From contig JAOPZW010000375.1 in the NCBI GenBank assembly GCA_025963905.1, positions 1 through 52,519 on the forward strand: a DNA stretch of 52,519 nt. The letters run 5' to 3'. The stretch's first letter is position 1. Each line of letters starts with the position of its first letter. The DNA is from Solirubrobacterales bacterium. GTDB lineage: Bacteria > Actinomycetota > Thermoleophilia > Solirubrobacterales > Solirubrobacteraceae. Under the pieces are notes generated by a model. That model saw only the letters and a list, made by a program, of their open reading frames with translations. It did not search any database and was not told the origin of the DNA. The translations under genes were made by a program, and so were the position numbers. Shown here one piece after another: positions 4,701 through 32,907 of this stretch.

Positions 4701-4789
4701 TTCGTGCTCAGCACGGTCACCGGCCAACCATGCCGGATTGCGGCCTTTCGCGCGGATTTCGCCGCCGGGCGTACGGTGGGAACCGACAC
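1748..4789 (-). CDS. Large STAND-type transcriptional regulator: MalT/LAL-like N-terminal P-loop ATPase, helical repeats, C-terminal winged-helix + BTAD (SARP-type) module
   Basis: 1013 aa. The N-terminus reads LSTKVRPPSVRGSVVARPRL followed by Walker A GTAGAGKTT. The C-terminus reads GAPALVVDGEEVHPKLSKSLELLAYLATHRRRASRQTLLDELF...YVRQALARLKDVL (wHTH), followed by a BTAD-like helical end (DPYRESAWRLAMRVAAAMGQDDQVIARF). GTG start at 4789. Confidence 0.8.
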   Translation of the reverse strand: MSVPTVRPAAKSARKAAIRHGWPVTVLSTKVRPPSVRGSVVARPRLASRIAELAEMTSLVWVRGTAGAGKTTAVVEAVATSSRPVAWLTLDASEAAPGRLLAYLESALARVLPRLPDAATVALADDVTHVEAAGLLAEAVGARELTLVIDEIEHLVDAPQAKAALGAFLRFAPPTLRVILISRRDVPLHLGGARDAGAAAVTEADLAFTLEEAAGALAALGQRADDAETAVAATGGWVAGVLFEAWRSPAHPHGAGGESDPLSGYLSSEIMATLPAAERRFLIVTSLLDEVTPARAEALGVADAGALLASLRSHHAPVAFGADGVEMRCHPRFREFLQQRLRELDVTTVRALRRRLGALLAEEERPDDAVAAFLEADDVAAAEAIGERAMPGVLRRRDFAVASSWLRAFREAVVRGSRVLTYAELVVAMEHEEFEAGAEAADRLLALSAGAPLDPAAAGAVAMCLLHVSRLDDAYETIERLPPGPDRDVWRFQLGVAMADDRHHYRDRPEHTALHGFLARLDLYQGRFDRLLEPMTTPWAAARSSRVEALRAVGRHEEALALLQESSTSGWTSSRVRQFGEIMADLGRHGEADAAAREGRELVGRSGALSVMLHYLFEAMLALRLRRDTAAAAVALAKVEADPTARRRLRTLEQIELWRGLMALLDDDAVKAGVHLRRAVALLQQWDRLFFLPAAGVYLAEAEWRLGDEDAADAAADLALAGAQRQASNYLLLQALREFPSVVARRLDAEAGVDSPWHRIGRALMAEGALSDVALLPRVHVREFGAPALVVDGEEVHPKLSKSLELLAYLATHRRRASRQTLLDELFDGRTDGSARSYVRQALARLKDVLPDDAPLEVGAEEVAWRDEHLSSDGLRLERLVQSAARVGGAARIEILDDALALTASGDYLPGVTSPWVDKRRAVLASLATDASLDIAEVAFELGDLGRAEQQVQLVLASDPYRESAWRLAMRVAAAMGQDDQVIARFRGCRAALAELSTDPAESTRHLLKNLRR

Positions 4790-4869: not shown

Positions 4870-5904
4870 TTGATCACGCCAGCCGACACCGAGTTCCACC
4901 CGCGCGACCCCTCGATCGCGAGCTGGACCGAGACCATGTTCATGATCTTCTCGGTCCCCGAGGCCAACATCCTGGGCAACGTCTACGTCCTGGCACGGCC
5001 GAACCTCGGCATCGCGACGTCGTCGATCATGGTCCAGCAGGGGTTCTGCCGCCAGCCGTACGAGATCGACTTCTGCGATCCGCAGGTGCACCTCGCCTGC
5101 CCGCCGTCGTTCCGCGACTTCTCGCTGGCCAACGGGCTGACTGTAGAAGTCACCAAGCCGCTGCTCGGCTATCGCATGTCCTACGCCGCGTCTTCGGGAG
5201 CCTGCGCGTTCGATCTCGACTTCGAGGCGTTGATGCCGCCGTTCGACATGCACGATCCCCGCGAGAACCCGCTGCACGTCGCCGGCGACGACTGGGCGGA
5301 GCCGCACAAGGCGACGACCGAGGCGACGAAGGGCCACTTCGACGTCGTGGGGCGCGTCACCGGCGAGTTCGAGCTGCGCGGGCGCCGCTACCGGGTCGAC
5401 TGCGTCGATGGGATGGACCACAGCTGGGGCCCCCGCTCGGAGGAGAGCGCGGGCACGGGTTCGCGCGCGGCCGCCTGGATGCACGTCACGTTCGGCGACG
5501 ACTTCGGGATGCATCTGGCAATGGCCCTGGACCTGCGCGACGGCGAGGTCGTCTACGACGGCCTGCGCTTCGGCTACGTCATGGACGGTCGCGAGGTCGT
5601 CGGCCTGGTCGAGGCCGACGTGCGCACCACCCGCGTCGACATGCTGGGCGTGAGCAACCACATCCAGGCGCGCGACGCGCGTGGGCGCGAGTACGAGTTC
5701 TTCGGGACGGCCGTGGCCGGCGCGCCCTGGTACTCGTTCAACCCCTGCTGCGTGTCGTTCCAGAGCCTGTACCGCTACCAGCACGAGGGCCGGGTCGGCT
5801 ACTGCGAGGGCGCGGACATCTTTGGGTTGAACTTCCTGGGCGAGCGCCTGTCGCGCCACTGCCGGGAACGGGGAGCGCCGGCGCTCGCGCCGACGACGTC
5901 GTAA
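4870..5904 (+). CDS. Uncharacterised beta-rich protein, module copy 1 (paralogue of 9093..10124)
   Basis: The TTG at 4870 is in frame with ORF 4738..5904. That start gives (M)ITPADTEFHPRDP, colinear with the paralogue's MITAADSEFHPRDP. The two share blocks LIFSVPEA.IL.NVYV.ARP.LG, GQGFCRQPYE(I/M)DF, GRVTGE..LRGRRY.VDC.D.MDHS(W/F)G.R and PWYSFNP. GC3-rich. Confidence 0.75.
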   Translation: MITPADTEFHPRDPSIASWTETMFMIFSVPEANILGNVYVLARPNLGIATSSIMVQQGFCRQPYEIDFCDPQVHLACPPSFRDFSLANGLTVEVTKPLLGYRMSYAASSGACAFDLDFEALMPPFDMHDPRENPLHVAGDDWAEPHKATTEATKGHFDVVGRVTGEFELRGRRYRVDCVDGMDHSWGPRSEESAGTGSRAAAWMHVTFGDDFGMHLAMALDLRDGEVVYDGLRFGYVMDGREVVGLVEADVRTTRVDMLGVSNHIQARDARGREYEFFGTAVAGAPWYSFNPCCVSFQSLYRYQHEGRVGYCEGADIFGLNFLGERLSRHCRERGAPALAPTTS

Positions 5905-5921
5905 GGACCGGGAGAGGGTCG

Positions 5922-7148
5922 ATGGGGGTCATGGAGATCACACGCGGCTGGGACTTCGCCCTGCTCGACGATCCGCCGCCGGACGTCGTCGAAGAGCTGC
6001 GCCGGCGCTATCCGGTCGAGCGCGAGACCGATCGCCAGCTCGTGCGCAAGCTGGGGCGGCGCGGCAGCGGGCCGTACGTGCCGGTGTCCCTGGAGGAGCT
6101 CAGCGACGCGGTCGCGAGGATGCTCGCCGACACGGTCGACGGCCCGTCCTCCATCACCAACGCCCGCTGGTTCACCGGGGGCGCGTCGAAGGTGCAGATG
6201 GGCTTCGACCTCGCGTGGCGGGACGCCGGCGGTCCGCGCCGGGACCGCCTCATGGTCCGCATGGATCCCGCCGAGTCGCACAACGCGACGAGCAAGCTGC
6301 GCGAGTTCGAGCTGCTGCGCGAGCTGCACGGGCGGATGCCGGTGCCCGAGGCCTTCTGGGTCGACGACGACGCGCTCTGGTTCCCGTATCCCGCGTTGGT
6401 GTACTCCTTGATCGACGGCATCGCCAAGCCGCGGGAGGGCGTCGGCGGCAAGGTCGTGGGGCTGGGCACGAACTTCGGGCCCGGCCTGCGTGAGCGGCTC
6501 GCGCCGCAGTACGTGGAGCACCTGGCGCGGATCCACACGCTCGACCTGCACGACGCCGAGCTGCCCAGCTTCGACGTGCCGGAGGTTGGCACGACCCAGA
6601 GCGCGCTCTGGGAGCTCAACCGCGCGCGGCGGCTGTGGGAGGAGGACCGCGGCGTCGACGTGCCGCTGATGGAGGTCGCCGGCAACTGGCTAGAGCGGAC
6701 GCTGCCGGTGCTCGACCACGTCGGCCTGGTCCACGGCGACTACCGCAGCGGCAACTTCCTCTACGACGAGGAGACGGCGCGCTTCACCGGCTGGCTGGAC
6801 TGGGAGCGCGCGCACCTCGGCGACCGCCACCGCGACCTCGCATGGTCGACGCAGCCCGTGTGCGGCCACTACGCCGAGGACGGCCGGACCTACCTCGTGT
6901 GCGGCCTCGTGCCGCTCGACGAGTTCTACGACAATTACTCGAAGTTGTCGGGGTTGACCGTCGACCCGGAGCGTCTGCGGTGGTATCGGGTCCTCAACGC
7001 CTACTCCATGGTCGCGAGCACCGTGGGCTCGGCGTGGCGCGTGGCGCGCCTGGGCAAGACGCACCAGGACATCCTCCTGGCGCGCGTCGAGGGCATGCGC
7101 GGCGTGGTGCTCGAAGAGCTGCGGACGTTGTTGGAGGAGGTGCTGTGA
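5922..7148 (+). CDS. APH-fold phosphotransferase (ACAD10/11 N-terminal / LvaA-like kinase family), module copy 1
   Basis: 408 aa starting at ATG 5922 (GGAGAGGG at 5911..5918). Catalytic-loop motif LVHGDYRSGNFLYDEE and metal-binding DWERAHLGDRHRDLAW are present. Colinear with 10121..11335. Confidence 0.85.
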   Translation: MGVMEITRGWDFALLDDPPPDVVEELRRRYPVERETDRQLVRKLGRRGSGPYVPVSLEELSDAVARMLADTVDGPSSITNARWFTGGASKVQMGFDLAWRDAGGPRRDRLMVRMDPAESHNATSKLREFELLRELHGRMPVPEAFWVDDDALWFPYPALVYSLIDGIAKPREGVGGKVVGLGTNFGPGLRERLAPQYVEHLARIHTLDLHDAELPSFDVPEVGTTQSALWELNRARRLWEEDRGVDVPLMEVAGNWLERTLPVLDHVGLVHGDYRSGNFLYDEETARFTGWLDWERAHLGDRHRDLAWSTQPVCGHYAEDGRTYLVCGLVPLDEFYDNYSKLSGLTVDPERLRWYRVLNAYSMVASTVGSAWRVARLGKTHQDILLARVEGMRGVVLEELRTLLEEVL

Positions 7149-7678
7149 TCGACGCGACCGACACGACGCTGCGGGCGTCGATCAAGGCGCTGCGGGACGT
7201 CGTCGCCCCGGCGCTCGACCCGGACGCGACCCAGGCGGCCGAGCAGCTGCGCCTGGTCGTCGACGCGCTCGACTTCCTGCGCCAGCGCGTCGGGCTGGTC
7301 GAGGAGCGCGAACTGTTCCTGCTCGAGCACGACCTCGCGCTCGCCCGGGCGGTCACCTCGCCCGCCGCGGCGTGCGCGCCCGCCTGCGCCGACGCGCTGG
7401 CCGCCGCGATCGCCCGCGCCGAGGACGTCCTGGCGCGCGCCGCCGTGCGACGCGCCGAGGTCGTCGAGGCCGGAGCGGCCCTCGGCGCCGCTCTGCGCGA
7501 GCTGATTCGCGACGCGGCGACGGCCGACCCGGCCGCGCGCGACGCGATCGAGCGCGCGACGGTTCGCGCCGCACGCGCGACCATCGCGGCCGACCGCGCC
7601 TGGTACCTGCCGCAGGGCTTCGACCCCGACCCGGGCGCGGTGCCGCCGATCGAGGCGGCGCTGGCGGTGCGCGAGTAG
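7145..7678 (+). CDS. All-helical partner protein of unknown function, module copy 1
   Basis: The GTG at 7145 overlaps the kinase stop (GTGA). 177 aa, Ala/Leu/Arg-rich, helical. It shares IKAL.DVVAP..DPD...EQL.LVVD.L and ERAWYLP.GFDP with 11332..11928. GC3-rich. Confidence 0.75.
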   Translation: MIDATDTTLRASIKALRDVVAPALDPDATQAAEQLRLVVDALDFLRQRVGLVEERELFLLEHDLALARAVTSPAAACAPACADALAAAIARAEDVLARAAVRRAEVVEAGAALGAALRELIRDAATADPAARDAIERATVRAARATIAADRAWYLPQGFDPDPGAVPPIEAALAVRE

Positions 7679-7839
7679 CGCGGGACGGGGCGAAGGGCGG
7701 CGACGTCCAGCACAGCTTCGCCGGCGGCGGGTCCAGCGGGCCGCCGGCGCTGGAGGGTTCCGCGACGCCGCCCCAAGTAGGGGCGGGCCGCCGCATGCCC
7801 GTGGAGCGATGGTCACGACAAGTACGGAGGAGACACGAC

Positions 7840-9072
7840 ATGAGGCACAAGCGATGGGCATCCCTGCTGACCCTGGTTGCGGCGGCGGGTGGGCTGGCGG
7901 CGTGCGGGTCGAGTCACGACGGCGGCTCGACCGGTTCGAGCGGCTCGAGCGGGGGCGGAGGCGCGGCGCTGAAGATCGCGCTCGTCCCGCCGACCGGCGG
8001 CGCGCTCGAGCAGCTCGGCAAGAACGCGGTGCGCGGCTGGCAGTATGCGGCGGCCGAGGCCAACGCGAAGGGCGGCATCGCCGGTCACAAGGTCGAGATC
8101 GTCACCAGCTCGACCGACGGCCAGCCGAACACGACGCTGCGCGCCGTGCGCAAGCTCGTGACGCAGAACGGCGCCAAGTACGTCAGCGGCATCGTGACCT
8201 CGCCGGAGGTCGGCGCGCTGCAGCAGCAGCTCCCGGCGCTCGGCGCGCTCGCCCTGCTCGGCGACGGCCAGGACGACGCGCTCACCGGCGCCAATTGCAA
8301 CGCCAACGCGTTCCGCGCGACGCAGTCGGCCTCGATGCTGCTGGCCGGCTTCCAGCAGATGCTCACCAAGTCCAAGGCGCAGAAGTGGGCGATCCAGGCG
8401 GTCGACTACTCGACCGGGCACACCGCGGCCAAGCTGTTCCAGACGGCGGCGGAGAAGGCGGGCAAGAAGGTCGTCCTCGTGCAGTTCGCGCCGCTGGGCA
8501 CGACCGACTTCGGGTCATACATCTCGAAGATCCGCGCATCGGGCGCCGACGGCTTCTTTGGCCTCGTCCCGTCGCTGGACGGCGTCGCCTTCATCAACCA
8601 GGCGTCGCAGTTCAAGCTCTTCGACACCTTCAAGTCGGTGTTCTCCTACAACATGGTCACCGAGCCCAATCTCCCGACGCTCGGTGCCAAGACCGTCGGC
8701 TTCCTGTCGAACCTCGGATACGACGAGTCCTCGACCAACCCCATGAACAAGTCGTTCGTCGCGGGGTTCCAGAAGCAGTTTGGCGGCGTGCCTGAGACGG
8801 TGGCGGCCGACAACTACCTCGCGGCGCAGCTGCTGTTCGCCGGCGTCAAGAAGGCCGGGAGCGTCGACCCGCAGAAGGTCAAAGCGGCCCTCGACGGCAT
8901 CTCGTTCGACTCGTTCGTCGGCCCCGTGACGATGGGCGCCGACCACCAGCTCGTGCGACCCGCCTACATCGCCGAGGTCGCCAAGGGCGGCGACGGCTAC
9001 GTCTTCAAGACCGTCGCCGCCATCCCCAGCAGCGTCACCCGCCCGACCCCCGACCAGGCTTGCAAGCTCTAG
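7840..9072 (+). CDS. LivJ/Peripla_BP_6-type ABC substrate-binding lipoprotein (SBP1)
   Basis: ATG 7840 is preceded by GGAGGA (7827..7832). Signal peptide with lipobox LAAC, then a Gly/Ser linker. Type-I PBP blocks are present (KIALVPPTGGALEQLGK, ANAKGGIAGHKV, FAPLGTTDFGSYISKI). Confidence 0.9.
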   Translation: MRHKRWASLLTLVAAAGGLAACGSSHDGGSTGSSGSSGGGGAALKIALVPPTGGALEQLGKNAVRGWQYAAAEANAKGGIAGHKVEIVTSSTDGQPNTTLRAVRKLVTQNGAKYVSGIVTSPEVGALQQQLPALGALALLGDGQDDALTGANCNANAFRATQSASMLLAGFQQMLTKSKAQKWAIQAVDYSTGHTAAKLFQTAAEKAGKKVVLVQFAPLGTTDFGSYISKIRASGADGFFGLVPSLDGVAFINQASQFKLFDTFKSVFSYNMVTEPNLPTLGAKTVGFLSNLGYDESSTNPMNKSFVAGFQKQFGGVPETVAADNYLAAQLLFAGVKKAGSVDPQKVKAALDGISFDSFVGPVTMGADHQLVRPAYIAEVAKGGDGYVFKTVAAIPSSVTRPTPDQACKL

Positions 9073-9092: not shown

Positions 9093-10124
9093 ATGATCAC
9101 CGCAGCGGATTCCGAGTTCCACCCGCGGGACCCGGCGGACTGGCGCTGGACCGAGACGACCCCACTGATCTTCTCGGTCCCGGAGGCGGGCATCCTCGCC
9201 AACGTCTACGTCGCCGCCCGGCCGGGGCTCGGCGTGGCGCTCTCGTCGGTCGCGGTCGGCCAGGGCTTCTGCCGGCAGCCCTACGAGATGGACTTCACCG
9301 ACGCGCAGATGCACTTGCCGTGCCCGGAGTCGTTCCTGAAGTACTCGCTGCCCAACGGGTTGTCGGTGGAGTTGACGAAGGCGCCGACCGAGTACCGCTT
9401 CCGCTACGAGTACCAGCTGGGCGACGCGTGCCGGTTCGACGTCGAGTTCCAGGCGCTGCACGACCCGTTCGACGCGACCGACCCCGACCACAACCCGGCG
9501 CTGCTCACCACGGTGGGCAGCGCCGCCGACGAGCGGCTGGGAGACGAGTGGGGCAACGCGTCGGGCACGGGCGCGCCGGCCTTCCCCAAGGGCCATTACG
9601 AGATGATGGGCCGGGTCACCGGCGAGCTGTGGCTGCGCGGCCGGCGCTACGACGTCGACTGCTACGACGTGATGGACCACAGCTTCGGGACGCGGACCGA
9701 GACCAGCAAGCGGGCCGTGTCCTACATCTCGGCGGTGTTCGGCCCCGACTACGGCATCCACCTCGCGGTGCCGATGGAGGTGACCGCGGGGGAGACGGTC
9801 TACGACGGGTTCCGGCTCGGCTACGTCATGGAGGACGGCGAGCTGTTCGGCGTCACCGACGCGGAGGTCGTCGCGTCGTCGGGAACCGACATGCTCCCGA
9901 TGAACAGCCACATCCGCGCGACCGACGTGCGCGGCAAGGAGCACGAGCTGCACGGGGCGGCCCTGGCCGGGCACCCGTGGTACTCGTTCAACCCGTCGCA
10001 CGTCTGCTTCCAGAGCCTGATGCGCTGGCACCACGGCGACCGGGTCGGGTACGGCGAGAAGGGTGACATCTTCGGCCTGGAGTTCCTGGCCGAGCGCAAG
10101 TCCCGCCACGGGCGGCGGCGATGA
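9093..10124 (+). CDS. Uncharacterised beta-rich protein, module copy 2
   Basis: ATG 9093 lies 20 nt after the SBP1 stop, with GAGAGG upstream. 343 aa, colinear with 4870..5904. Confidence 0.85.
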   Translation: MITAADSEFHPRDPADWRWTETTPLIFSVPEAGILANVYVAARPGLGVALSSVAVGQGFCRQPYEMDFTDAQMHLPCPESFLKYSLPNGLSVELTKAPTEYRFRYEYQLGDACRFDVEFQALHDPFDATDPDHNPALLTTVGSAADERLGDEWGNASGTGAPAFPKGHYEMMGRVTGELWLRGRRYDVDCYDVMDHSFGTRTETSKRAVSYISAVFGPDYGIHLAVPMEVTAGETVYDGFRLGYVMEDGELFGVTDAEVVASSGTDMLPMNSHIRATDVRGKEHELHGAALAGHPWYSFNPSHVCFQSLMRWHHGDRVGYGEKGDIFGLEFLAERKSRHGRRR

Positions 10125-11335
10125 CGGTGGCCGGCGTCGACCGCGACCGGCCCACGGCGGCGTCCATCGACGAGATGCGCCGCCGCTTCCCGACCGAGCG
10201 CGAGACCGACGCGCTGCTGGTCCGCAAGCTCCAGCGCCGCGCCGGCCCGCCGTACCGCCGGATCGCCAAGGACGAGCTCTCAGCGTGCCTGCGCGCGATG
10301 TTCGCCGACACGCTGCCGGGCACGTTCGCGGTCTCCGACGAGCGCTGGTTCACCGGCGGCGTGTCGAAGATCCAGCTCGGGTTCACGCTGGAGTGGGACG
10401 ATCCCAAGCGCGGGCGGTCACGGGACCGGCTCATGGTGCGGATGGACCCGTCGGAATCGCTGAACGCGACGAGCCGCGTGCGGGAGTACGAGCTCCTGCG
10501 GGCCTTCGACGGCGTGCTCCCGGTCCCGCGGGTCTTCGGGCTGGATCCCGCCGGCCGCTGGTTCCCGGAGCCAGCATTGTTGTACGCCTTCGTGGACGGC
10601 GTGACGCGGCCGACCGGCGCGACCTCCGGCCAGGTCTCCGGGTTGGGCACCAATTTCGGGCCCGCGCTCCGGGGGCGACTCGCGCCGCAGTTCCTGGAGC
10701 ATCTGGCGCGCGTCCACACCTTCGACCACGCGTCGGCGGACCTCACGGCGCTGGACCTCCCGCGCGCGGGAACGACGGAGAGCGCGCTGTGGCAGCTCAA
10801 CCGGGCGCGGCGCGTCTGGGAGGAGGACCGCGCCGACGACCTGCCGCTCATGGAGGTGGCGGCCAATTGGATGCAGCGGAACCTGCCGACCACGGACGTC
10901 GTCAGCGTCGTCCACGGCGACTTCCGCAGCGGCAACTTCCTGTTTGACGAGGCCACCGGCGAGATCCGCGCCTGGCTGGACTGGGAGCGCGCGCACCTCG
11001 GCGACCGCCACCGCGATCTGGCCTGGACGACGCAGGCGCTCTTCGGCCACTACGGCGCGGGCGACGATCGCGGAACCTACTACGTGTGCGGCCTGCTGCC
11101 CGTCGACACGTTCTACGAGCGCTACGAGGAGGCGTCGCGGTTGGTGGTCGACCACGACGCGCTCGCGTTCTACCGGATCCTCAACTGCTACCAGATCGTC
11201 GTCTCCACGCTCGCGACGGCCTACCGCGTGGCGCGCCTCGGGAAGTCCCACCAGGACATCCTCCTCGCGCGCGTCAGGGGCGAGGTGCCGATCGTCATCG
11301 GGGAGCTGCGCGCATTGCTGAAGGAGCGCCTGTGA
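10121..11335 (+). CDS. APH-fold phosphotransferase (ACAD10/11-N/LvaA-like), module copy 2
   Basis: ATGA overlap with 9093..10124. Contains VVHGDFRSGNFLFDEA and DWERAHLGDRHRDLAW. 404 aa. Confidence 0.9.
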   Translation: MTVAGVDRDRPTAASIDEMRRRFPTERETDALLVRKLQRRAGPPYRRIAKDELSACLRAMFADTLPGTFAVSDERWFTGGVSKIQLGFTLEWDDPKRGRSRDRLMVRMDPSESLNATSRVREYELLRAFDGVLPVPRVFGLDPAGRWFPEPALLYAFVDGVTRPTGATSGQVSGLGTNFGPALRGRLAPQFLEHLARVHTFDHASADLTALDLPRAGTTESALWQLNRARRVWEEDRADDLPLMEVAANWMQRNLPTTDVVSVVHGDFRSGNFLFDEATGEIRAWLDWERAHLGDRHRDLAWTTQALFGHYGAGDDRGTYYVCGLLPVDTFYERYEEASRLVVDHDALAFYRILNCYQIVVSTLATAYRVARLGKSHQDILLARVRGEVPIVIGELRALLKERL

Positions 11336-11928
11336 CCGCCAACCACATCCACAACGGTCTGGGGGCCGCGATCAAGGCGCTGCTCGACGTCGTCGCGCCG
11401 AGTGTCGACCCCGACGACCCGCTGGCCCACGAGCAGCTCCAGCTCGTCGTCGACTACCTCGAGCTCGTCCGCTCGCGCACCGACCTGATCTGGGACCGCG
11501 AGCGCCTGACGCTGCGCCACTACCTCGCGATGGCCGACGCGGTCGGGCCGTCCGTGTCGACGTGGCTGGACGGCGCGGCCTCCGCGGGCCGGCGCGCGCT
11601 CGGCGACGCCGACGCCGGTGTGCGTCCGCTGCGCGACGCGGCCGCCGAGCTGGCTGGCGCGCTCTCCGAACTCGTCCGGGCGCTCGGCGAGCCCGACGCC
11701 GACCCGGCGCTGTGCGCCCGCGTCGAGGTCGTCGTCGTCGACGCCAGCCAGGTCCTCGTGGACGTCGAGCGGGCGTGGTACCTGCCGCTCGGCTTTGACC
11801 CAGCGGCCGCAGAAGTGGGTTCGGTCGAAGCTGCGCTGCAGCACGCCACGGCCGAGCTCGACCGCGGTCCTCAGCCTGCCCTCTACCAGGGCGAGGGCCC
11901 CGGCACCGCACCCCAAGCACCTCGCTGA
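11332..11928 (+). CDS. All-helical partner protein, module copy 2
   Basis: The GTG at 11332 overlaps the kinase stop (GTGA), the same junction as copy 1. 198 aa with the conserved blocks listed for 7145..7678. Confidence 0.75.
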   Translation: MTANHIHNGLGAAIKALLDVVAPSVDPDDPLAHEQLQLVVDYLELVRSRTDLIWDRERLTLRHYLAMADAVGPSVSTWLDGAASAGRRALGDADAGVRPLRDAAAELAGALSELVRALGEPDADPALCARVEVVVVDASQVLVDVERAWYLPLGFDPAAAEVGSVEAALQHATAELDRGPQPALYQGEGPGTAPQAPR

Positions 11929-12108
11929 CCCGCCGCGCAGCTCGACGAGCGGTCGAAACGACCGCACCCGCCGCAGCCCGAATCCTCTGGCGTAGGCCCA
12001 ACCGCGGGCGAAGACGCGAAGGCACGTTATCCCGAGTCGCTCTCCTCGGCGCTGCCTGCGCGCTGCTCTGCACTCGGACCGGGAAGGAACCGACCGGCCC
12101 GCCTCGGC

Positions 12109-12124
12109 ATGCGCTGCAGCGCAT
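12109..12124. promoter_or_regulatory. 16-bp perfect palindrome ATGCGCTGCAGCGCAT in the 354-bp non-coding gap upstream of the GntR gene
   Basis: Read directly. This is the longest intergenic region in the window and has no GC3 coding signal. Confidence 0.3.
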
Positions 12125-12282
12125 CGCGCCAGACGTTGTTCCACGCGCGGCTGGCAGCTCGTGATGCACACCCGTCGCGAACGCTGCGCCCATTTCGACG
12201 CCTCCCGCGATCGTTGTGGGCTTCTCCAACGGGGCGCGGCGGGCGCGCCCGGCGCGGTGAACGCCGTTGTTAGGGTGGCGCG

Positions 12283-13068
12283 GTGAGTGGAGCATCGAGC
12301 ACACGGACGCTGACCGCGCGACGGGTCGCCGGACGCCGCGGACGCGACGATGGCACCGCCCGGCGGCTGCGGGACGTGCTGCGCCACAACATCGTGGCGG
12401 GGGTCTACCCCGACGGGCTCCTTCCCGGCGAGGCCGAGTTGATGGTGGCCTACGGCGCGCGCCGCGCGGCGGTCCGCGAGGCCCTTTCGATGCTGCGCCG
12501 CGAGCGCCTGGTCGAGCGTGTCCAGGGGATCGGCACGTTCTCGATCTGCGAGCAGCGCTACGCCTCGACGTTCGAGGAGATGCACGGCCACGTGGACGCG
12601 GACGCGGTCAGCCGTCGCGCCCGGCCGCAGATCCTGGAGCGCGCGGTGATCGCCGCGCCCGACGCGGTCGCGCACAAGCTCGGGATCGCGCCCGGCGAGC
12701 CGGTGGTGCTCCTGGAGTACCTGGGCTTCGTGGACGGCGTCGCGGTCTGGCTCGCCAGCAACTACGTCAAGCTCCCGCAGGGCGCGCCGCTGCTCGCCGC
12801 CGCGTTCGAGTCCGAGTGGTACGCCCTGCTCGCGTCGGCGGGCCTGCGCGTCGGGGGTTCGGAGTGGCACCTCAGCGCGGTGAACGTCGACGACGCGGTG
12901 GCCGAGCTGCTGGACGTCCCGTCGGGCACCGCGGTGATGCTCGCCGAGGAGCTGATCTGGGACGAGCAGGGCGAGGTGTATGACTTCGCCGTCTGCTACT
13001 TCCGCTCGGACCGGCACTGCTTCGTCTCCGCCGCCGGTCGGTTCGCGATGCGCGAAGCGTCCGCCTGA
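12283..13068 (+). CDS. GntR-family transcriptional regulator (HutC/UTRA-type effector domain)
   Basis: N-terminal wHTH LPGEAELMVAYGARRAAVREALSMLRRERLVERVQGIGTF, followed by a UTRA-like C-terminal domain. GTG 12283 is preceded by TAGGGT (12271..12276) plus 6 nt, a leaderless-type arrangement. Confidence 0.85.
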   Translation: MSGASSTRTLTARRVAGRRGRDDGTARRLRDVLRHNIVAGVYPDGLLPGEAELMVAYGARRAAVREALSMLRRERLVERVQGIGTFSICEQRYASTFEEMHGHVDADAVSRRARPQILERAVIAAPDAVAHKLGIAPGEPVVLLEYLGFVDGVAVWLASNYVKLPQGAPLLAAAFESEWYALLASAGLRVGGSEWHLSAVNVDDAVAELLDVPSGTAVMLAEELIWDEQGEVYDFAVCYFRSDRHCFVSAAGRFAMREASA

Positions 13069-16620: not shown

Positions 16621-16634
16621 GCGAGCAGCACTCG

Positions 16635-16862
16635 ATGGACACCGACGAGCAGCGGGACCTCGTGCGCAGGCTCATGCGACACCACGCGTTCCCGGCCGGC
16701 GAGGGCGAGGTCGCGGTCTACACGGCGATGGTCGCGCCGGTCACCGCGGAGGTCGCCCGGCTCTACGCGATGGAGGGCATCCGCGAGGTCGAGCCCGCAC
16801 CGACGTTCTGCGCCGCCCCGCGAGACGGGGACTCGTCTGGCGGCGACGGCGCGGCGCCCTAG
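16635..16862 (+). CDS. Small GatC/AtzG-like protein (75 aa), putative amidase partner
   Basis: ATG lies 14 nt after the amidase stop, and the ORF is GC3-rich. The segment AEVARLYAMEGIREVEPAPTF resembles the GatC ...L.EVDT.GVEPT... segment. Confidence 0.5.
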   Translation: MDTDEQRDLVRRLMRHHAFPAGEGEVAVYTAMVAPVTAEVARLYAMEGIREVEPAPTFCAAPRDGDSSGGDGAAP

Positions 16863-16947: not shown

Positions 16948-17982
16948 CTACCGGTGAACCCTCCCGAGCGCGCGCGGACCGTAGGCGTACGTGCTGCTAC
17001 GTGTGAGGGCGAACTCGAAGATGCCGATGCCCTGTTGCCCAGACCACTCGAACGCGGTCAGGCGATCGGTCAGCGCGGTGTCGACGGTCTTCGGGGTCAC
17101 GGAGCCGTCGAGCGGATAGACGTCGTGCTCGAGGTGGTCGCGGCCGAGGGGCTTGCCGTGGTGGCCGCCGTAGCCGGCTCCCGCCATGTAGCCGCCGCCG
17201 GCACGGGCGTCGGCGTCGAGGGTGTAGGCCTTGCCCGAGGCGGTGGTCACCTCGACGCGGCCGCCCACGAGATCCAGGTTGTCGTCGAACTCCAGGTCGT
17301 GGCCGACGTCGACGATCGGATCGACGCTGCCGTCGGCGAGCATGACGCCGCCCTCCAGGAGCAGGCGGCTGTGGTCGCGGCCCTCGACGAGGAGGAAGCC
17401 GACGGCGCGGTCGGCGAACTCCGCCTGGTACCAGATGTGCAGGCCCTGGCCGCCCGACATGGTCCGGATGCCGCGCGAGCGATCGCGCACGCCCCACCAG
17501 CCGTCGACCGCGACGGCCGCGCTGTCCAGCGTGAGCGTGCCCTCGTAGCGACCGGGCTGGAAGAGGTGGTCGAACGCCGCGGTGGTCACGTCCCCCTGCT
17601 TGACGTTGACCTCGTCGTACCAGGCCCCGCCGCTCGCGCGCCAGACGAGGTCGAACTCCACGTTGGTGGGGTTGGGCCCGAGCGCGACGTGCCACGCGGT
17701 CATGGGCTCGACCACGTCATAGGAGAACGGGCCGGCGCCGCGGCCGTCGGTCGCGCTGAGCTCGGTCGAGAACCGGACGTTGCGCTGCTCGCCGCCAGTT
17801 GTCACGACGACGAACCCGTCGGCCACGTCCTTGCGCGGGTGGACGCCGAACCCGAAGAGGATCGATGGGTCAGTGCCGGCGCCCGCCGGCGGATGCAGGT
17901 TGAAGACGAAGCGGTCGAAGAAGCGCTCGTGCAGGCTGGGCGCGTCCTTGCGGACCAACGCATCGTGGAACCCGGCCATCAC
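16948..17982 (-). CDS. Third, divergent member of the beta-rich protein family
   Basis: 344 aa. [30 protein letters not shown] aligns with GRVTGEFELRGRRYRVDCVDGMDHSWGPR of 4870..5904. It is followed by a similar W/F-rich block ([10 protein letters not shown] vs WMHVTFGDD). ATGA overlap with the upstream B12-binding gene. Confidence 0.8.
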
Positions 17983-18404
17983 GCCACCCGCACCGCGACG
18001 ACGGCGGACCCGATGAAGTCGATGATGTCCTGCGTCGGCGCGCCCGGCGTGAAGACCTCGGCAACCCCGAGGTCCTTCAGCGGCGCGATGTCGTCGTTGG
18101 GGATCGTGCCCCCGACCGTGACGAGGACGTCGTCGATGCCCTGCTCCTTGAGCAGCTGCACGATGCGGGGCACCAGCGTCATGTGGGCCCCGGAGAGGAT
18201 CGACAGCCCGACGGCGTCGGCGTCCTCCTGGATGACGGTCTCGACGATCTGCTCCGGGGTCTGGTGCAGCCCGGTGTAGATCACCTCCATGCCGGCGTCG
18301 CGCAAGGCGCGCGCGATGATCTTGGCTCCGCGGTCGTGGCCGTCGAGACCCGGCTTGGCGACGACGACGCGGATCTTGCGCTGAGGAGGTGCGGCAGCGG
18401 CCAT
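17979..18404 (-). CDS. Stand-alone cobalamin (B12)-binding domain protein (acyl-CoA mutase small-subunit type)
   Basis: 141 aa. Contains [36 protein letters not shown] (the DxHxxG B12 motif) and ...GLSILSGAH...VTVGGTIP. Confidence 0.9.
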
Positions 18405-18414
18405 GTCGGCTATG

Positions 18415-18429
18415 CTAACGATCGTTCAC
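18415..18429. promoter_or_regulatory. Operator site 1: CTAACGATCGTTCAC (palindromic core AACGATCGTT at 18417..18426)
   Basis: On the minus strand it reads GTGAACGATCGTTAGCAT-AGCCGAC-ATG(18404), so the motif overlaps a TANNNT -10 box 7 nt from the start codon. Confidence 0.6.
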
Positions 18430-18456
18430 TCAGGACGCCAGGTGAGGGAGGCCAGG

Positions 18457-19194
18457 ATGCGCGACATCGCGCTCGTCGACACGTTCAACCTGCGCGACCT
18501 CGGCGGCTATCCCACGGTCGACGGCCGGCATGTCCGCTGGCGGCGCCTCTTCCGCGGCGCCGGGCTGCAGCGCCTGGACGGGGACGACCTGGAGATGGTG
18601 CGGGCGCTCGGCATCGTCACCGCGATCGACCTGCGCACCGACGGCGAGGTCGAGGCCACCGGCACCTACCCGGTCGGCCGGCTGCCCGCGACGTTCCACC
18701 ACCTGCCGATGATCGAGCGCATCTGGGACCTCGACGGTCTGGACCCCGGCGCGCTGGCCCACGATTACCTCGTGGACCGCTACCGCGACATGCTCGCGGA
18801 GGGCGCGCCGACCATCGCCACCATCATGGACCTCCTGACCCGCCCGGGCGCGCTCCCCGCCGCGTTCTACTGCGCCGCCGGCAAGGACCGGACCGGCGTG
18901 CTCGCGGCCCTCGTCCTGGGCGCGCTGGGCGTGGAGCCGGCCGCGATCGTCGCCGACTACCACCTGTCCAAGGAGCGGGTCGAGCGCATCCGGGCGCGTG
19001 CTCTCGCGGCGTCCGGCGCCGGCGCATCGGCGATGGTCGCCCAGCCGCCCGCGTTCATGCAGGCGCCGGCCGAGACGATGCAGCTGCTGCTGGCGTGGAT
19101 CGACGAGGTCCACGGCTCGACGCCGGGCTACCTCGCCTCGATCGGCGTCGCGCCGGCGACCGTCGACGCGCTGCGGGCCGCGCTGCTGGGGTGA
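18457..19194 (+). CDS. Protein-tyrosine/dual-specificity phosphatase-fold protein (Y_phosphatase3-like)
   Basis: CX5R active-site loop YCAAGKDRTG. N-terminal NLRDLGGY block. ATG 18457 is preceded by GAGGGAGG. Confidence 0.85.
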   Translation: MRDIALVDTFNLRDLGGYPTVDGRHVRWRRLFRGAGLQRLDGDDLEMVRALGIVTAIDLRTDGEVEATGTYPVGRLPATFHHLPMIERIWDLDGLDPGALAHDYLVDRYRDMLAEGAPTIATIMDLLTRPGALPAAFYCAAGKDRTGVLAALVLGALGVEPAAIVADYHLSKERVERIRARALAASGAGASAMVAQPPAFMQAPAETMQLLLAWIDEVHGSTPGYLASIGVAPATVDALRAALLG

Positions 19195-21958: not shown

Positions 21959-21973
21959 TAAACGATCGTTCAC
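21959..21973. promoter_or_regulatory. Operator site 2: TAAACGATCGTTCAC
   Basis: Minus strand: GTGAACGATCGTT-TACAGT-CGTCGCC-ATG(21947). Plus strand: TACTGT (21983..21988) + 6 nt + ATG 21995. Confidence 0.65.
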
Positions 21974-27459: not shown

Positions 27460-27474
27460 TAAACGATCGTTCAC
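27460..27474. promoter_or_regulatory. Operator site 3: TAAACGATCGTTCAC
   Basis: Minus strand: GTGAACGATCGTT-TATAGT-GGCGGGC-ATG(27448). Confidence 0.65.
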
Positions 27475-27525: not shown

Positions 27526-27539
27526 TAACGCTCGTTAAC
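27526..27539. promoter_or_regulatory. Degenerate second operator TAACGCTCGTTAAC upstream of the BadH-like gene
   Basis: Its core AACGCTCGTT has one mismatch to AACGATCGTT. It is followed by TACAGT (27549..27554) + 7 nt + ATG 27562. Confidence 0.45.
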
Positions 27540-27561
27540 GGATGCTGGTACAGTCGGCGCC

Positions 27562-28338
27562 ATGAGCGGAAACGGCGCAGGCGCAGAGGCGCGCACGGCC
27601 CTGGTCACCGGTGGAGGGCGGGGCATCGGCCGCGCGATCGCGGAGGGCCTGGCCACCGACGGCTTCCAAGTCGTCATCGTAGATCTCCGAGAGGCCGAGG
27701 CCCAGGAGTCGGTCAGCGCGATCGAGGCGGCGGGCGGCTCCGCCCTCGCCGTCGCGTGCGACGTCGCCGACTCGGCCAGCGTCGAGCGCGCCGTCACCGC
27801 CGCGCACGAGCGCTTCGGCCACGTCGACGTCCTCGTCAACTGCGCGGGCTGGGACGACCTGATGCCGTTCCTCGCCACCGACGAGGCGTTCTGGGACCGC
27901 GTCATCGACATCAACTTCAAGGGGCCGCTGCGCTTCACGCGGCTGCTGCTGCCCGGCATGGTCGAGCGCGGCTACGGGCGCATCGTCAACATCGGCTCCG
28001 ACGCCGGCCGCGTCGGCTCGTCGCTGGAGTCGGTGTACTCGGGCGCCAAGGGCGGCCTGATCTCGTTCACCAAGACCATCGCCCGCGAGGTCGCGCGCAA
28101 GGGCGTCACCGCCAACGTCGTCTGCCCGGGCCCGACCGACACGCCGATGCTGCAGGAGACGATGGCCGCCGCCGATGACGCCGACGCGGTGCTGAAGGCG
28201 ATGGTCCGGGCCGTCCCGATGAAGCGCCTCGGCTCCCCCGACGACATCGCCGCCGCGGTGCGCTTCTTCGCCAGCGACGCGGCGGGCTACGTCACGGGCC
28301 AGACGCTGTCGGTCAGCGGCGGCCTCACGATGGCATGA
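27562..28338 (+). CDS. SDR, 3-hydroxyacyl-CoA / 2-hydroxycyclohexanecarboxyl-CoA dehydrogenase (BadH)-like
   Basis: Contains TGGGRGIG, NCAG and S...YSGAKGG. It sits directly upstream of a BadI-like gene. Confidence 0.88.
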   Translation: MSGNGAGAEARTALVTGGGRGIGRAIAEGLATDGFQVVIVDLREAEAQESVSAIEAAGGSALAVACDVADSASVERAVTAAHERFGHVDVLVNCAGWDDLMPFLATDEAFWDRVIDINFKGPLRFTRLLLPGMVERGYGRIVNIGSDAGRVGSSLESVYSGAKGGLISFTKTIAREVARKGVTANVVCPGPTDTPMLQETMAAADDADAVLKAMVRAVPMKRLGSPDDIAAAVRFFASDAAGYVTGQTLSVSGGLTMA

Positions 28339-28387
28339 GCATGGAACCAGCAACGGCAACGGCGCGAACGCCGCAGGAGGAGACGCA

Positions 28388-29185
28388 ATGGACGAGTTGA
28401 CCGACGTCCTCTACGAGGTCGAGGACGGCCTCGCGACGATCACGATCAACCGGCCGGACCGCTTCAACGCGTTCCGGGCCAAGACCGTCGACGAGCTGAT
28501 CGGCTGCCTGAAGCGCGCATGGGCCAGCAGCGACGTGGGCGTCGTCTGCCTCACCGGCGCCGGCGATCGCGCGTTCTGCACCGGCGGCGACCAGAAGCAG
28601 CGCATGGAGACCGGTGACTACGGTCCGTCGCAGCACGGCCTGTTCGAGATCGACGCGCTGCACCACACGCTGCGCGACATCCCCAAGCCGGTCATCGCCG
28701 CGGTCAACGGCTACGCGATCGGCGGCGGCCACGTCCTGCACGTCCTGTGCGACCTGACGATCGCCTCCGACAAGGCCGTCTTCGGCCAGGTCGGGCCCAA
28801 GGTCGGGTCGTTCGACGCCGGCTTCGGCACCGGCTACCTCGCGCGTGTCATCGGCGAGAAGCGCGCGCGGGAGATCTGGTTCCTGTGCCGGCAGTACGGT
28901 CCGGACCAGGCGATGGAGTGGGGCCTGATCAACAAGACCGTTCCGCACGAGGACCTCTACAAGGAGGTCCGCCAGTGGGCCGACGAGATCCTGCGCCTGT
29001 CGCCGACCGCGCTGCAGGTCCTGAAGCAGTCGTTCAACACCGACACCGAGCAGTTCGCGTCGGTCGGCCAGATGGCCTACTCGAGCCTCCAGCTGTTCAC
29101 GCAGAGCGCCGAGGCGCAGGAGGGCATCACCGCCTTCAACGAGAAGCGCCCGCCGGAGTTCGCGCCCTTCCGCGCCGGCCAGTAG
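28388..29185 (+). CDS. MenB-family crotonase, 2-ketocyclohexanecarboxyl-CoA hydrolase (BadI)-like
   Basis: 265 aa. Contains [53 protein letters not shown] and EKRPPEF. It is shorter than the menB product and lacks the MenB tail, matching BadI length and blocks as I recall them. Confidence 0.85.
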   Translation: MDELTDVLYEVEDGLATITINRPDRFNAFRAKTVDELIGCLKRAWASSDVGVVCLTGAGDRAFCTGGDQKQRMETGDYGPSQHGLFEIDALHHTLRDIPKPVIAAVNGYAIGGGHVLHVLCDLTIASDKAVFGQVGPKVGSFDAGFGTGYLARVIGEKRAREIWFLCRQYGPDQAMEWGLINKTVPHEDLYKEVRQWADEILRLSPTALQVLKQSFNTDTEQFASVGQMAYSSLQLFTQSAEAQEGITAFNEKRPPEFAPFRAGQ

Positions 29186-29209
29186 CCGCCCGGCGTACCC
29201 CATGGGGAA

Positions 29210-29238
29210 GCTCTTCCTCCCCCGAAGGGAGGAGGAGC
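29210..29238 (+). terminator. GC-rich hairpin (12-bp stem, 5-nt loop), possible factor-independent terminator or attenuator without a U-tract
   Basis: GCTCTTCCTCCC (29210..29221) pairs with GGGAGGAGGAGC (29227..29238), with one G-U pair. It lies 25 nt after the BadI-like stop. Confidence 0.35.
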
Positions 29239-29275
29239 GCCCCCGCGGGCCCTCCGGCCGGTCTACGTTCGCGGC

Positions 29276-30115
29276 GTGAGGGTCGTGCGCTACGCGGTGG
29301 AGGGCGGGGATCCCCGGACAGGGATCGTGCGCGGTGACGAGGTCGTCGACGTGGGGACGCTCCCGCCGGTCGAGCTGATCGCGGCCGGGGTGACCGAACC
29401 CGACGGCGGCCGCGCAACGCCGCTGGCCGACGTCACGCTCCTGCCGCCCGTCGAGCGGCCGCCGAAGTTCCTGGCGATCGGCCTCAACTACGCCGACCAC
29501 GCCGCCGAGGCGAATCTGGCCACGCCGGAGTTCCCGGTGGTCTTCGCCAAGCTGGGGTCCTGCGTCAACAGGCCGTTCGGCGCGATCGAGCGCCCGCGCG
29601 TCTCCGACCAGCTCGACTACGAGGGCGAGCTCGGGATCGTGATCGGCCGCCGCTGCCGGCACGTCAGCGCCGCCGACGCGCCGGCGGCGATCGCCGGCTA
29701 CGTCGTCGTCAACGACGTCTCGGTGCGCGACTGGCAGACGCGGACGCCGCAGTGGACGCTGGGCAAGTCGTTCGACACGCACGGCCCGATCGGCCCGTGG
29801 CTGACGACCGCCGACGAGGTGGGGGACCCGCACGCGCTCGGGATCCGCACCTGGGTCAACGGCGAGCTGCGCCAGGAGTCCAACACCCAGCACCTGATCT
29901 TCGACTGCTACGCCTTGGTCGAGCACCTCTCGGCGGCGTGCACGCTGGAACCCGGCGACGTCATCGCCACCGGGACGCCCGCGGGCGTGGGCATGTTGAT
30001 GGACCCGCCGCGCCTGTTGCGCGCTGGCGACGTCGTCCGGGTCGAGATCGACCGGCTCGGCGCGATCGAGAACCGCGTCGTCGACGAGCCGGCGGCGAAC
30101 GACAGAAGGGGTTGA
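29276..30115 (+). CDS. Fumarylacetoacetate hydrolase (FAH) family hydratase/decarboxylase/isomerase
   Basis: Contains GLNYADHA, DYEGELGIVIG, NDVSVRDWQ, GKSFDT and TGTPAGVG. GTG start. Confidence 0.9.
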   Translation: MRVVRYAVEGGDPRTGIVRGDEVVDVGTLPPVELIAAGVTEPDGGRATPLADVTLLPPVERPPKFLAIGLNYADHAAEANLATPEFPVVFAKLGSCVNRPFGAIERPRVSDQLDYEGELGIVIGRRCRHVSAADAPAAIAGYVVVNDVSVRDWQTRTPQWTLGKSFDTHGPIGPWLTTADEVGDPHALGIRTWVNGELRQESNTQHLIFDCYALVEHLSAACTLEPGDVIATGTPAGVGMLMDPPRLLRAGDVVRVEIDRLGAIENRVVDEPAANDRRG

Positions 30116-30121
30116 AGGACC

Positions 30122-31444
30122 GTGGCGCTGGACACGCAGGACCTGCAGGACGCCGTCATCGACGATCGCGAGCGCGGGGTGTTCCGCGTCAAGCGCACGA
30201 CGATGACCGCCGACGCGATGTGGCACCTGGAGCGCAAGCGGGTCTTCGATCAGTGCTGGCTCTACGTCGGCCATACCTCGGAGATCGCCGAGCCCGGCGA
30301 CTTCGTCCGCCGCAAGGTCGCGGGGCGCCCGCTGGTCTTCGTCCGCGGCCGCGACGGCGAGGTCCGCGCCTTCTACAACTCGTGCACGCACCGCGGCGCG
30401 CGTGTCTGCCGCCAGGACCACGGCAACACCAAGTCCTTTCAGTGCTTCTACCACGCGTGGACGTTCTCGACAGAGGGCAAGTTGGTGGGGATCCCGGACA
30501 AGGAGGGCTACGCGCACGCGGTCGATCCCGCCGAGCTGGGGCTGCGGCCGGTCGCGCGGCTGGCCTGCTACCGCGACTTCTGGTTCGTGTCGTTCAACCC
30601 CGAGGTCGAGCCGCTCGAGGACTACCTCGCCGGGGCCAAGGAGTACATCGACCTCGTTGCCGACCAGGGCGCCGACGGGATGTGCGTCCTGCCCGGCACC
30701 CACCAGTACGCGTGCAACGCCAACTGGAAGCTGATGGTGGAGAACTCGGTCGACGGCTACCACGGCGCGCCGCTGCACCACACGTACTTCGCGTTCCTGG
30801 CCAGCCAGGGCGACGACGACGGCGCCAAGCAGCTGCGCAGCGTCGAGGCGCGGGCCTACGACCTGGGCAACGGCCACGCGGTCGTCGACTACCCGGCGCC
30901 GTTCCCGCGCGCGATCGCCCGCTGGCACCCGATCTACGGCGAGGACGCGAAGGACGAGCTGCAGGGCATCCGCGACGAGCTGGTCGACCGCTGCGGCGAG
31001 GAGCGCGCGCACCGGATGGCCGAGACGTGCCGCAACCTGCTCATCTACCCCAACCTGCTCCTGCTCGACGTCGCGGGCCTGACGCTACGCACGGTCTGGC
31101 CGGTGCGGCCCGACTACATGGAGCTGACCGGCTACGCGCTGGCGCCGCGCGGTGAGAGCGCCGCGCAGACGCGCCGGCGGCTGGAGGGCTTCAACCTGTT
31201 CCTCGGCCCGGGCGGCCTGGCGACGCCCGACGACATCGAGGCGCTGGAGGCCTGCCAGGAGGGCTTCGCGGCCACCGCCGAGGACTACTCGGACATCTCG
31301 CGCGGCATGCACCGCGACGCGGCGACGGTCGACGAGCTGCAGATGCGCGCATTCTGGCGCGAGTGGCAGGCCAACATGTTGGGGTTGGGCCACGGGGCCC
31401 ACGACGAGGGGCCGAAGCCGGCGCCGGCCGGGGTGGCGTCGTGA
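30122..31444 (+). CDS. Rieske non-haem iron ring-hydroxylating oxygenase, alpha subunit
   Basis: Rieske motif CTHRGARVC-x11-CFYHAW (CxH-x17-CxxH). Mononuclear iron motif ENSVDGYHGAPLH (E-x3-D-x2-H-x4-H). Confidence 0.92.
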   Translation: MALDTQDLQDAVIDDRERGVFRVKRTTMTADAMWHLERKRVFDQCWLYVGHTSEIAEPGDFVRRKVAGRPLVFVRGRDGEVRAFYNSCTHRGARVCRQDHGNTKSFQCFYHAWTFSTEGKLVGIPDKEGYAHAVDPAELGLRPVARLACYRDFWFVSFNPEVEPLEDYLAGAKEYIDLVADQGADGMCVLPGTHQYACNANWKLMVENSVDGYHGAPLHHTYFAFLASQGDDDGAKQLRSVEARAYDLGNGHAVVDYPAPFPRAIARWHPIYGEDAKDELQGIRDELVDRCGEERAHRMAETCRNLLIYPNLLLLDVAGLTLRTVWPVRPDYMELTGYALAPRGESAAQTRRRLEGFNLFLGPGGLATPDDIEALEACQEGFAATAEDYSDISRGMHRDAATVDELQMRAFWREWQANMLGLGHGAHDEGPKPAPAGVAS

Positions 31445-31971: not shown

Positions 31972-31995
31972 ACGTAGGACAACGAGGAGAGAGAC

Positions 31996-32904: not shown

Positions 32905-32907
32905 CCG

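Follow-up and report, generated by a model that had tools for sequence, protein, structure and literature searches.

Stand-alone cobalamin-binding subunits of heteromeric acyl-CoA mutases have been described as HcmB of Aquincola tertiaricarbonis (PDB 4R3U chain C), the small subunit of Aeropyrum pernix (2YXB), and IcmB of Streptomyces cinnamonensis, all of about 140 amino acids with a single B12-binding domain. A different reaction is attributed to 25-phosphosteroid lyase (25-PSL; PDB 9FZN, 9G2I, and 9G4C), which is proposed to remove phosphate from a tertiary 25-phosphoester and leave a delta-24 alkene; the phosphoester is made by an ATP-dependent 25-hydroxysteroid kinase in the oxygen-independent cholesterol side-chain pathway (PMC8449060, PMC11061730). 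ACAD10 and ACAD11 follow a like logic, in which a hydroxyl is phosphorylated and the phosphate is then eliminated, leaving the CoA ester with an alkene (PMC12440821, PMC11342911). Here, we analyze a pair of genes that brings proteins of the first two types together on a contig from a Solirubrobacterales bacterium (JAOPZW010000375.1; 52,519 nucleotides [nt], the whole stretch analyzed, hereafter the window), namely, a gene for a B12-binding small subunit (the B12 gene) whose stop codon overlaps the start of a gene for a 25-PSL homologue (the lyase gene). The window has a G+C content of 72%, its protein identities are those of a Baekduia-like member of the Solirubrobacterales, and the DNA derives from a soil metagenome.

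Overall, we conclude that the gene pair is real and offers no grounds for positing a new B12 enzyme. The pair probably encodes two separate enzymes that are co-transcribed and co-regulated following the recent insertion of a mutase small-subunit gene, as judged from sequence comparisons. A first-pass annotation of the window had noticed the pair and suggested radical or rearrangement chemistry, or a cofactor-handling role; its observation was confirmed, and its interpretation was partly supported.

The two gene products

Four features define the locus.
17979..18404, minus strand: B12 gene, 141 amino acids; cobalamin-binding small subunit of a heteromeric acyl-CoA mutase (IcmB/HcmB type); PF02310, TIGR00640
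16948..17982, minus strand: lyase gene, 343/344 amino acids; Rv3169-family, 25-phosphosteroid lyase homologue; NF053593, DUF7064
18405..18456: divergent control region of 52 nt between the B12 gene and the Y_phosphatase3 gene (start 18457)
18417..18426: operator 1, palindrome AACGATCGTT, directly before the B12 start

Both reading frames display the codon bias of real genes, with a G+C content at third codon positions (GC3) of 0.94 to 0.98. They meet at GCG TGA TGG; therefore, the lyase starts either at GTG 17982, with a 4-nt overlap (GTGA) with the B12 stop, or at ATG 17979, with an overlap of 1 nt. Gene calls on identical metagenome contigs chose the ATG start, which yields a lyase of 343 amino acids. 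The stop/start overlap reported in the first-pass annotation stands, although its sequence is GTGATG and not ATGA.

The B12 protein matched PF02310 at 1.2e-27 (96.6 bits; cutoff, 32.1) and TIGR00640, which models the methylmalonyl-CoA mutase C-terminal domain, at 5.7e-53 (178.4 bits; cutoff, 57.45), in line with its first description as a stand-alone domain of the acyl-CoA mutase small-subunit type with a DGHDRG motif. Its best PDB matches were themselves stand-alone small subunits, 2yxb (1.8e-45) and HcmB (4r3u_C, 1.4e-43), and it shares with these and with IcmB both the DxHxxG His-on motif and membership in TIGR00640. A role as a sensor or corrinoid carrier was considered and rejected, as the TIGR00640 score was far above those of the CarH, MtaC, and MetH models and the protein is nearly identical to mutase subunits.

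Pfam scans of the main open reading frames (ORFs) of the window identified neither a mutase large subunit nor a MeaB-like GTPase. Likewise, when a fused mutase, a heteromeric large subunit, and IcmF, which combines B12, mutase, and MeaB-like GTPase domains, were searched against all six frames of the window by tblastn, the sole match was 18045..18404. Within the 52-kb window the B12 gene is an orphan, as originally noted.

Outside the window, proteins 90 to 99% identical to the B12 protein number in the hundreds and are found in Baekduia and Conexibacter contigs. The surrounding locus was looked up for four of the matches with 93 to 95% identity, which gave 12 places, and the gene order was the same in 12 of 12: MarR, MM_CoA_mutase large subunit (551 to 556 amino acids), cupredoxin, a small opposite-strand ORF, the B12 gene, ETF-beta, ETF-alpha, and ETF-QO. 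At this canonical locus of related Baekduia, the B12 gene lies 0.7 kb downstream of the large subunit, and no MeaB-type GTPase gene was seen within 5 to 8 kb. Across L081-L086 and L090-L095, the cupredoxin gene and the small opposite-strand ORF always separate the two mutase subunit genes. The large subunit encoded at the canonical locus is nearest to HcmA (8e-175) and carries RQFAGF, STAFD, and AQKEW, where HcmA has RQIAGF and STDFD at the matching sites of the alignment; we take this Phe/Gln pattern to be that of isobutyryl-CoA mutases.

The window B12 gene aligns with the canonical Baekduia copies over its full length, with 84 to 90% DNA identity and 89 to 92% protein identity. Residues 9 to 134 are nearly invariant, and differences are confined to the two termini; the C-terminal end, in the overlap with the next gene, reads …SAVVAVRVA in place of the canonical …SAVEASPRQGV. 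The DxHxxG (DGHDRG), SxL (SILSG), and GG (GGTIP) motifs are intact and the same as in the canonical copies, while dN/dS was 0.12 to 0.19 against those copies and 0.18 within the clade that bears the insertion (L099). Because the core is nearly invariant, the motifs are intact, and dN/dS lies in this range, the B12 protein is predicted to be an ordinary, working mutase small subunit. Its near relatives adjoin a conventional large subunit, which is the obvious partner in those genomes, and the idea of an unpaired B12 domain is not upheld; the apparent puzzle of an orphan B12 protein is thereby removed. The window gene would be a copy or relocation of the gene lying just downstream of the 551- to 556-amino-acid large subunit in other Baekduia, and its product would work with a large subunit encoded outside the window. 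It differs from the genes of HcmB, 2YXB, and IcmB in that it stands in an operon with a phospho-lyase gene and not near a large subunit, and from those of other Baekduia in that it is not beside the ETF genes. In Streptomyces, icmB is presumably likewise unlinked to icmA.

The second gene product, initially described as a beta-rich protein of unknown family, is assigned by profile and model evidence to the 25-PSL/Rv3169 family of phosphate-eliminating lyases. The 344-amino-acid protein matched NF053593, the NCBIfam Rv3169 family, with 188.6 bits against a cutoff of 150, and DUF7064 at 2.7e-8, above the Pfam cutoff. Its homologues with 55 to 90% identity number more than 600; they span Actinomycetota, a few are from Gammaproteobacteria, and a scan of metagenome contigs with the lyase gave a single short locus. 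A profile of 20 homologues (alignment A1) matched the 25-PSL structures 9fzn, 9g2i, and 9g4c, public in January 2026, with an E value of 7.7e-30, pairing residues 12 to 324 with residues 21 to 353; identity between the two proteins is about 25%. The same three structures were the top Foldseek matches of an AlphaFold2 (AF2) model (pLDDT 83.6) at a TM score of 0.75 and an E value of 4e-22, followed by kievitone hydratase, AttH, and fungal Diels-Alderases at TM scores of 0.4 to 0.6. The 25-PSL sequence itself had no match to Pfam DUF7064 or DUF7065 at an E value of 0.01.

Common to the 344-amino-acid protein and 25-PSL are full-length homology, a double beta-barrel fold, and RDRSxGVR. Alignment A1 keeps the entire RDRSRG(I/V)R motif invariant, including R166, D167, R168, and S169, which pair with the RDRS of 25-PSL. 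Two deposited 25-PSL sequences differ by an Asp-to-Asn change within RDRSWGVR, and from this difference we infer that the Asp of RDRS is the catalytic residue.

Unlike 25-PSL, the lyase is found in a context of acyl-CoA catabolism (hydratase, dehydrogenases, and an HMG-CoA-lyase-like gene) and not among molybdenum steroid hydroxylases, and no kinase adjoins it at the window locus. Since the gene context is one of acyl-CoA catabolism, the substrate is probably not a steroid, and is probably a CoA ester instead. The lyase would remove phosphate from an alcohol, probably tertiary, that had been phosphorylated by a kinase of the APH or ACAD10/11 type, leaving an alkene. A family that had been taken as unknown thus gains a predicted function, phosphate elimination after kinase action, and this function accounts for the kinase context with no need to invoke radical chemistry.

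Distribution of the B12-lyase arrangement

Conservation of the adjacency was surveyed in one genome per species, comprising 80 loci whose lyase orthologues have 54 to 78% identity. A B12 domain stood directly upstream of the lyase at a single locus (L012) and elsewhere within 8 kb at 2 others, while 77 of the 80 had none. Common in these loci were orthologues of the hydratase of the window, the HMG-CoA-lyase-like gene, short-chain dehydrogenases/reductases (SDRs), and acyl-CoA dehydrogenases. The B12 gene did stand in front of the lyase on contigs whose lyase is 90 to 100% identical (L087, L088, L089, and L099). Relatives with 77 to 80% lyase identity (L001, L097, and L098) have the same neighbors, Y_phosphatase3, SDR, and amidase, and no B12 gene.

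On the minus strand, a -10-like TAGCAT (18417..18412) abuts AACGATCGTT 7 nt ahead of the B12 ATG, and this element is predicted to be a leaderless promoter with an overlapping operator. The first-pass annotation had placed the pair behind such a promoter, and the palindrome at 18417..18426 bears this out. In L098 and L001, the element GTGAACGA(T/G)CGTTAGCATA(G/C)(C/G)CGAC-ATG leads straight into the lyase gene, whereas the identical element of the window leads into the B12 gene. Because this element drives the lyase directly in relatives, the B12 ORF appears to have been inserted precisely between the leaderless promoter and the lyase start. The region upstream of the canonical B12 gene is of the Shine-Dalgarno type, unlike the leaderless element of the window.

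By these comparisons, the B12 insertion is recent and restricted to a narrow clade, and the adjacency most likely represents a lineage-restricted promoter capture, not a conserved second context of the lyase family. It had been proposed that the family occurs in two genetic contexts; the kinase context holds (46 of 79 loci, see below), but B12 as a second one does not, as the adjacency lacks conservation and, in relatives, the lyase gene directly follows the same promoter. In the narrow clade, the B12 ORF would have entered at the exact point where the leaderless promoter with its operator met the lyase start codon. Both genes would then be transcribed from the captured promoter and be translationally coupled, and the link between them would be one of co-regulation within a AACGATCGTT regulon of acyl-CoA catabolism and not a physical complex of the B12 protein with the lyase. 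The locus would thus be a clean case of a mutase subunit gene that recently captured a promoter.

Highly improbable, in our estimate, is a physical pairing of the B12 domain with the beta-rich protein that forms a new cobalamin-dependent enzyme or serves cofactor hand-over. The stop/start overlap, the shared promoter, and the fact that the 52-kb window encodes no large subunit speak for it. It is opposed by the near-identity of the B12 protein to subunits that adjoin a conventional large subunit, by the deposited 25-PSL structures, which hold phosphate and steroid product, with the lyase family apparently cobalamin free, and by the 79 of 80 loci, together with the closest relatives (77 to 80%), in which the B12 gene is not directly upstream.

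The narrow distribution of the arrangement and the retention of the canonical locus in all other Baekduia contigs examined would also suit a neutral accident, in which a duplicated small-subunit gene came to lie behind a strong promoter and is heading for loss with no function. We regard this as distinctly unlikely, as the B12 copy is under purifying selection by the dN/dS values given above, its cofactor motifs are all intact, and its ORF is exactly placed with a coupled stop and start.

Mutases were found near the lyase at L012, L023, and L073. L012, a long-read metagenome-assembled genome (MAG) of an uncultured Solirubrobacterales, carries a tight operon (5922..9068) in which the large-subunit gene is followed by those for the small subunit and the lyase and which sits behind AACGGTCGTT, a similar operator. 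Its large subunit matched PF01642 at 1e-172, has RQFAGF and STAFD in its N-terminal part, and contains an apparent frameshift near position 6310, which could be a sequencing error in the long-read MAG or could mark a pseudogene; its small subunit is 80% identical to the window B12 protein. In L023, a Pseudonocardiaceae MAG, IcmF (5685..8942; NF045497, 1912 bits) lies 1.3 kb downstream of the lyase orthologue, and in L073 (Frankia canadensis) a fused 699-amino-acid mutase (10955..13054) lies about 2 kb downstream.

Several of these results weigh against the reading of two separate, co-regulated enzymes. L012 is a second, apparently independent joining of mutase and lyase, and two joinings suggest more than chance co-transcription; the mutases of L023 and L073 (IcmF and fused mutase) lie 1 to 4 kb from the lyase. 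In addition, the mutase large subunit has so far been seen in related genomes and not in the host, the window being soil metagenome. The best-matching soil sample (run X1) bears on whether the B12 gene is a second copy or the sole copy. There, the assembly breaks inside the B12 gene (window 18015..18485), and a variant B12 contig with 85% identity was present at a depth of 139, compared to about 99 for the window contig. The presence of such a variant at comparable depth would fit a second small-subunit gene in the host; however, unrelated contigs for the control region had depths of 165 to 208, and the variant is therefore not assignable to the genome of the window.

Since mutase and lyase have been joined at least twice, we keep open a pathway-level link, in which both act in the same catabolic route and their co-expression has been selected. 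One could imagine the CoA ester of an alicyclic or isoprenoid acid, with kinase and lyase removing a tertiary alcohol and the mutase straightening an isobutyryl- or other branched acyl-CoA fragment; isobutyryl-CoA might, for instance, be freed from an isopropyl-bearing alicyclic or isoprenoid acid. Such a link would fit the joining of a mutase to the same lyase orthologue on two occasions, each time behind an operator of the same type (the window has the small subunit alone, L012 has both subunits), the nearby IcmF or fused mutase of L023 and L073, and a regulon with BadH-like and BadI-like genes, acyl-CoA dehydrogenases, hydratases, an HMG-CoA-lyase-like gene, and CoA ligases. The RQFAGF, STAFD, and AQKEW of the Baekduia large subunit, taken above as the isobutyryl-CoA mutase pattern, would fit as well. 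Conversely, no mutase was present within 8 kb of the lyase in 76 of the 80 loci, the inserted B12 gene is missing from close relatives that share the regulon, the substrate is so far hypothetical, and acyl-CoA clusters are so common that a few chance neighborhoods are expected. We consider pathway-level coupling rather unlikely on balance. Unlikely, too, is the farther-reaching proposal that a mutase wired twice to the lyase marks an undescribed catabolic route, with ATP-driven dehydration of a tertiary alcohol by kinase and lyase plus B12-dependent skeleton rearrangement of a branched acyl-CoA; on induction of the regulon, the inserted small subunit would then increase or adjust the activity of the mutase.

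Candidate kinase partners and module proteins

The lyase belongs to the family of Rv3169 of Mycobacterium tuberculosis, whose gene we take to be adjacent to that of the APH-type kinase Rv3168. A kinase gene stood directly upstream of the lyase orthologue and on the same strand in 46 of the 79 loci with enough flank; in the window, that position is occupied by the B12 gene. Solirubrobacterales lyase loci are generally without an adjacent kinase, and none adjoins the lyase at the window locus. The two APH genes of the window, at 5901..7148 and 10121..11335, lie 6 to 12 kb from the B12-coupled lyase, each with a lyase-like partner of its own. The kinase that is directly upstream in most Actinomycetota would here be supplied in trans, with these two genes as candidates.

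The upstream kinases matched 9o56 (1.6e-47), 3dxp (1e-38), the ACAD11 kinase domain (6e-24), and Rv3168 (3ats; 1e-8). At L028 (6928..8001) and 45 other loci, the kinase is nearer to the ACAD11 kinase domain and 3dxp than to Rv3168. This resemblance points to a hydroxyacyl-CoA substrate, as far as sequence similarity can tell. ACAD11-type kinases phosphorylate 4-hydroxyacyl-CoAs ahead of elimination (PMC12440821, PMC11342911). In ACAD10 and ACAD11 the elimination is carried out by an acyl-CoA dehydrogenase domain, whereas in the system of the window it would fall to the protein with the 25-PSL fold.

Two tandem modules of the window (4870..7678 and 9093..11928) each consist of a lyase-like gene (DUF7065 plus DUF7064), an APH kinase gene, and an ORF of 176 to 197 amino acids, the last with no family match in either module. 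Each module is preceded by a gene for a Peripla_BP_6-type binding protein. The lyase-like proteins, encoded at 4870..5904 and 9093..10124, scored above the Pfam cutoffs for both DUF7064 and DUF7065, and the APH-family kinase gene comes next after each.

The distant relationship of the 344-amino-acid protein to these module proteins, asserted from the start, was borne out. Pairwise BLASTP with the module protein at 4870 gave no match, and profile-profile comparison with the module family gave an E value of 7e-6 with a probability of 84% (9-sequence profile) and an E value of 9e-4 (25-sequence profile). Both motifs that had been quoted for the two sides are present in the sequences, the one aligned by eye being RDRSRG(I/V)R, and both profile-profile alignments pair MDHSWGPR of the module proteins with RDRSRGVR of the lyase. 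All three window proteins (16948, 4870, and 9093) are above the Pfam cutoff for DUF7064. A model of the 9093 protein (pLDDT 92.4) had 25-PSL as its best PDB match, with a TM score of 0.64 and an E value of 5e-14; the module-family profile had no match among PDB sequences, and a single-sequence search returned noise only. Because DUF7064 and the best structural match are shared, the three proteins are judged to be distant homologues of one fold family.

As the 9093 model best matches 25-phosphosteroid lyase, the two tandem modules are probably kinase/lyase dehydration units, and the action of 25-PSL after an APH-type kinase explains why both module copies are paired with a kinase. If so, kinase/lyase dehydration would be a widespread system that has expanded in Actinomycetota (the window alone has three lyase paralogues) and is located in acyl-CoA catabolic islands and not in steroid pathways.

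The putative operator regulon and neighboring genes

Further operators of the window are listed below.
21961..21970: operator 2, between the divergent leaderless starts of an acyl-CoA dehydrogenase (21947, minus strand) and an HMG-CoA-lyase-like gene (21995, plus strand)
27462..27471: operator 3 (exact), between an IpdE2-like acyl-CoA dehydrogenase (minus strand) and the BadH-like SDR operon (plus strand)
27527..27536: operator 4 (one mismatch), between the same IpdE2-like acyl-CoA dehydrogenase (minus strand) and BadH-like SDR operon (plus strand)
40134..40143: operator 5, directly before an acetate/acetoacetate-CoA-ligase-like gene

The window thus holds four exact copies of AACGATCGTT and one with a single mismatch, compared to 0.65 expected. 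Every site abuts a -10-like hexamer (TAGCAT, TACAGT, TATAGT, or TAACAT) 7 nt ahead of an ATG or GTG, which suggests that AACGATCGTT overlaps leaderless promoters as a putative repressor site. Divergent from the acyl-CoA dehydrogenase at operator 2 are HMG-CoA-lyase-like, hydratase, and ligase genes, and the BadH-like operon behind operators 3 and 4 includes BadI-like, FAH, and Rieske-dioxygenase genes. The palindrome was also located in L001 (5083 and 7958), in L012 (1047 and 4769), near 9643 in Rhodococcus, and near 4050 in Nocardioides, so that operator-like sites are present in related Baekduia, Rhodococcus, and Nocardioides loci. Because it recurs beside the same gene families in distant Actinomycetota, AACGATCGTT looks like the mark of a conserved regulon, and the B12-lyase pair is predicted to belong to this regulon of acyl-CoA catabolism genes. 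A compact regulon of leaderless promoters and operators would be defined in this way. An Rfam scan of the window detected no cobalamin riboswitch and no other RNA family, and a sigma-70 and terminator scan found none around the B12-lyase pair.

Divergent to the pair is a Y_phosphatase3-family gene (18457..19194, plus strand). The ORF finder placed its start too early, at 18403; the true start, with a GGGAGG ribosome site ahead of it, is 18457. Throughout Baekduia relatives, this gene and the lyase gene form a divergent pair (7203..7940 in L001, 1542..2273 in L098, and 5365..6102 in L087), and a phosphatase that adjoins a phosphoester lyase could clear off-pathway phosphoesters.

Directly 3' of the amidase gene, an ORF of 72 to 77 amino acids with no family match is kept both in the window (16627..16862, plus strand) and in a 79% relative (L098, 3666..3884). 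The operon at 27529..33666 encodes a BadH-like SDR (312 bits), a BadI/MenB-like hydrolase (337 to 342 bits), and an FAH-family protein, as well as a benzoate-dioxygenase-like Rieske alpha/beta pair, an extradiol dioxygenase, and a further SDR, and this block recurs in L012 at 1078..4761.

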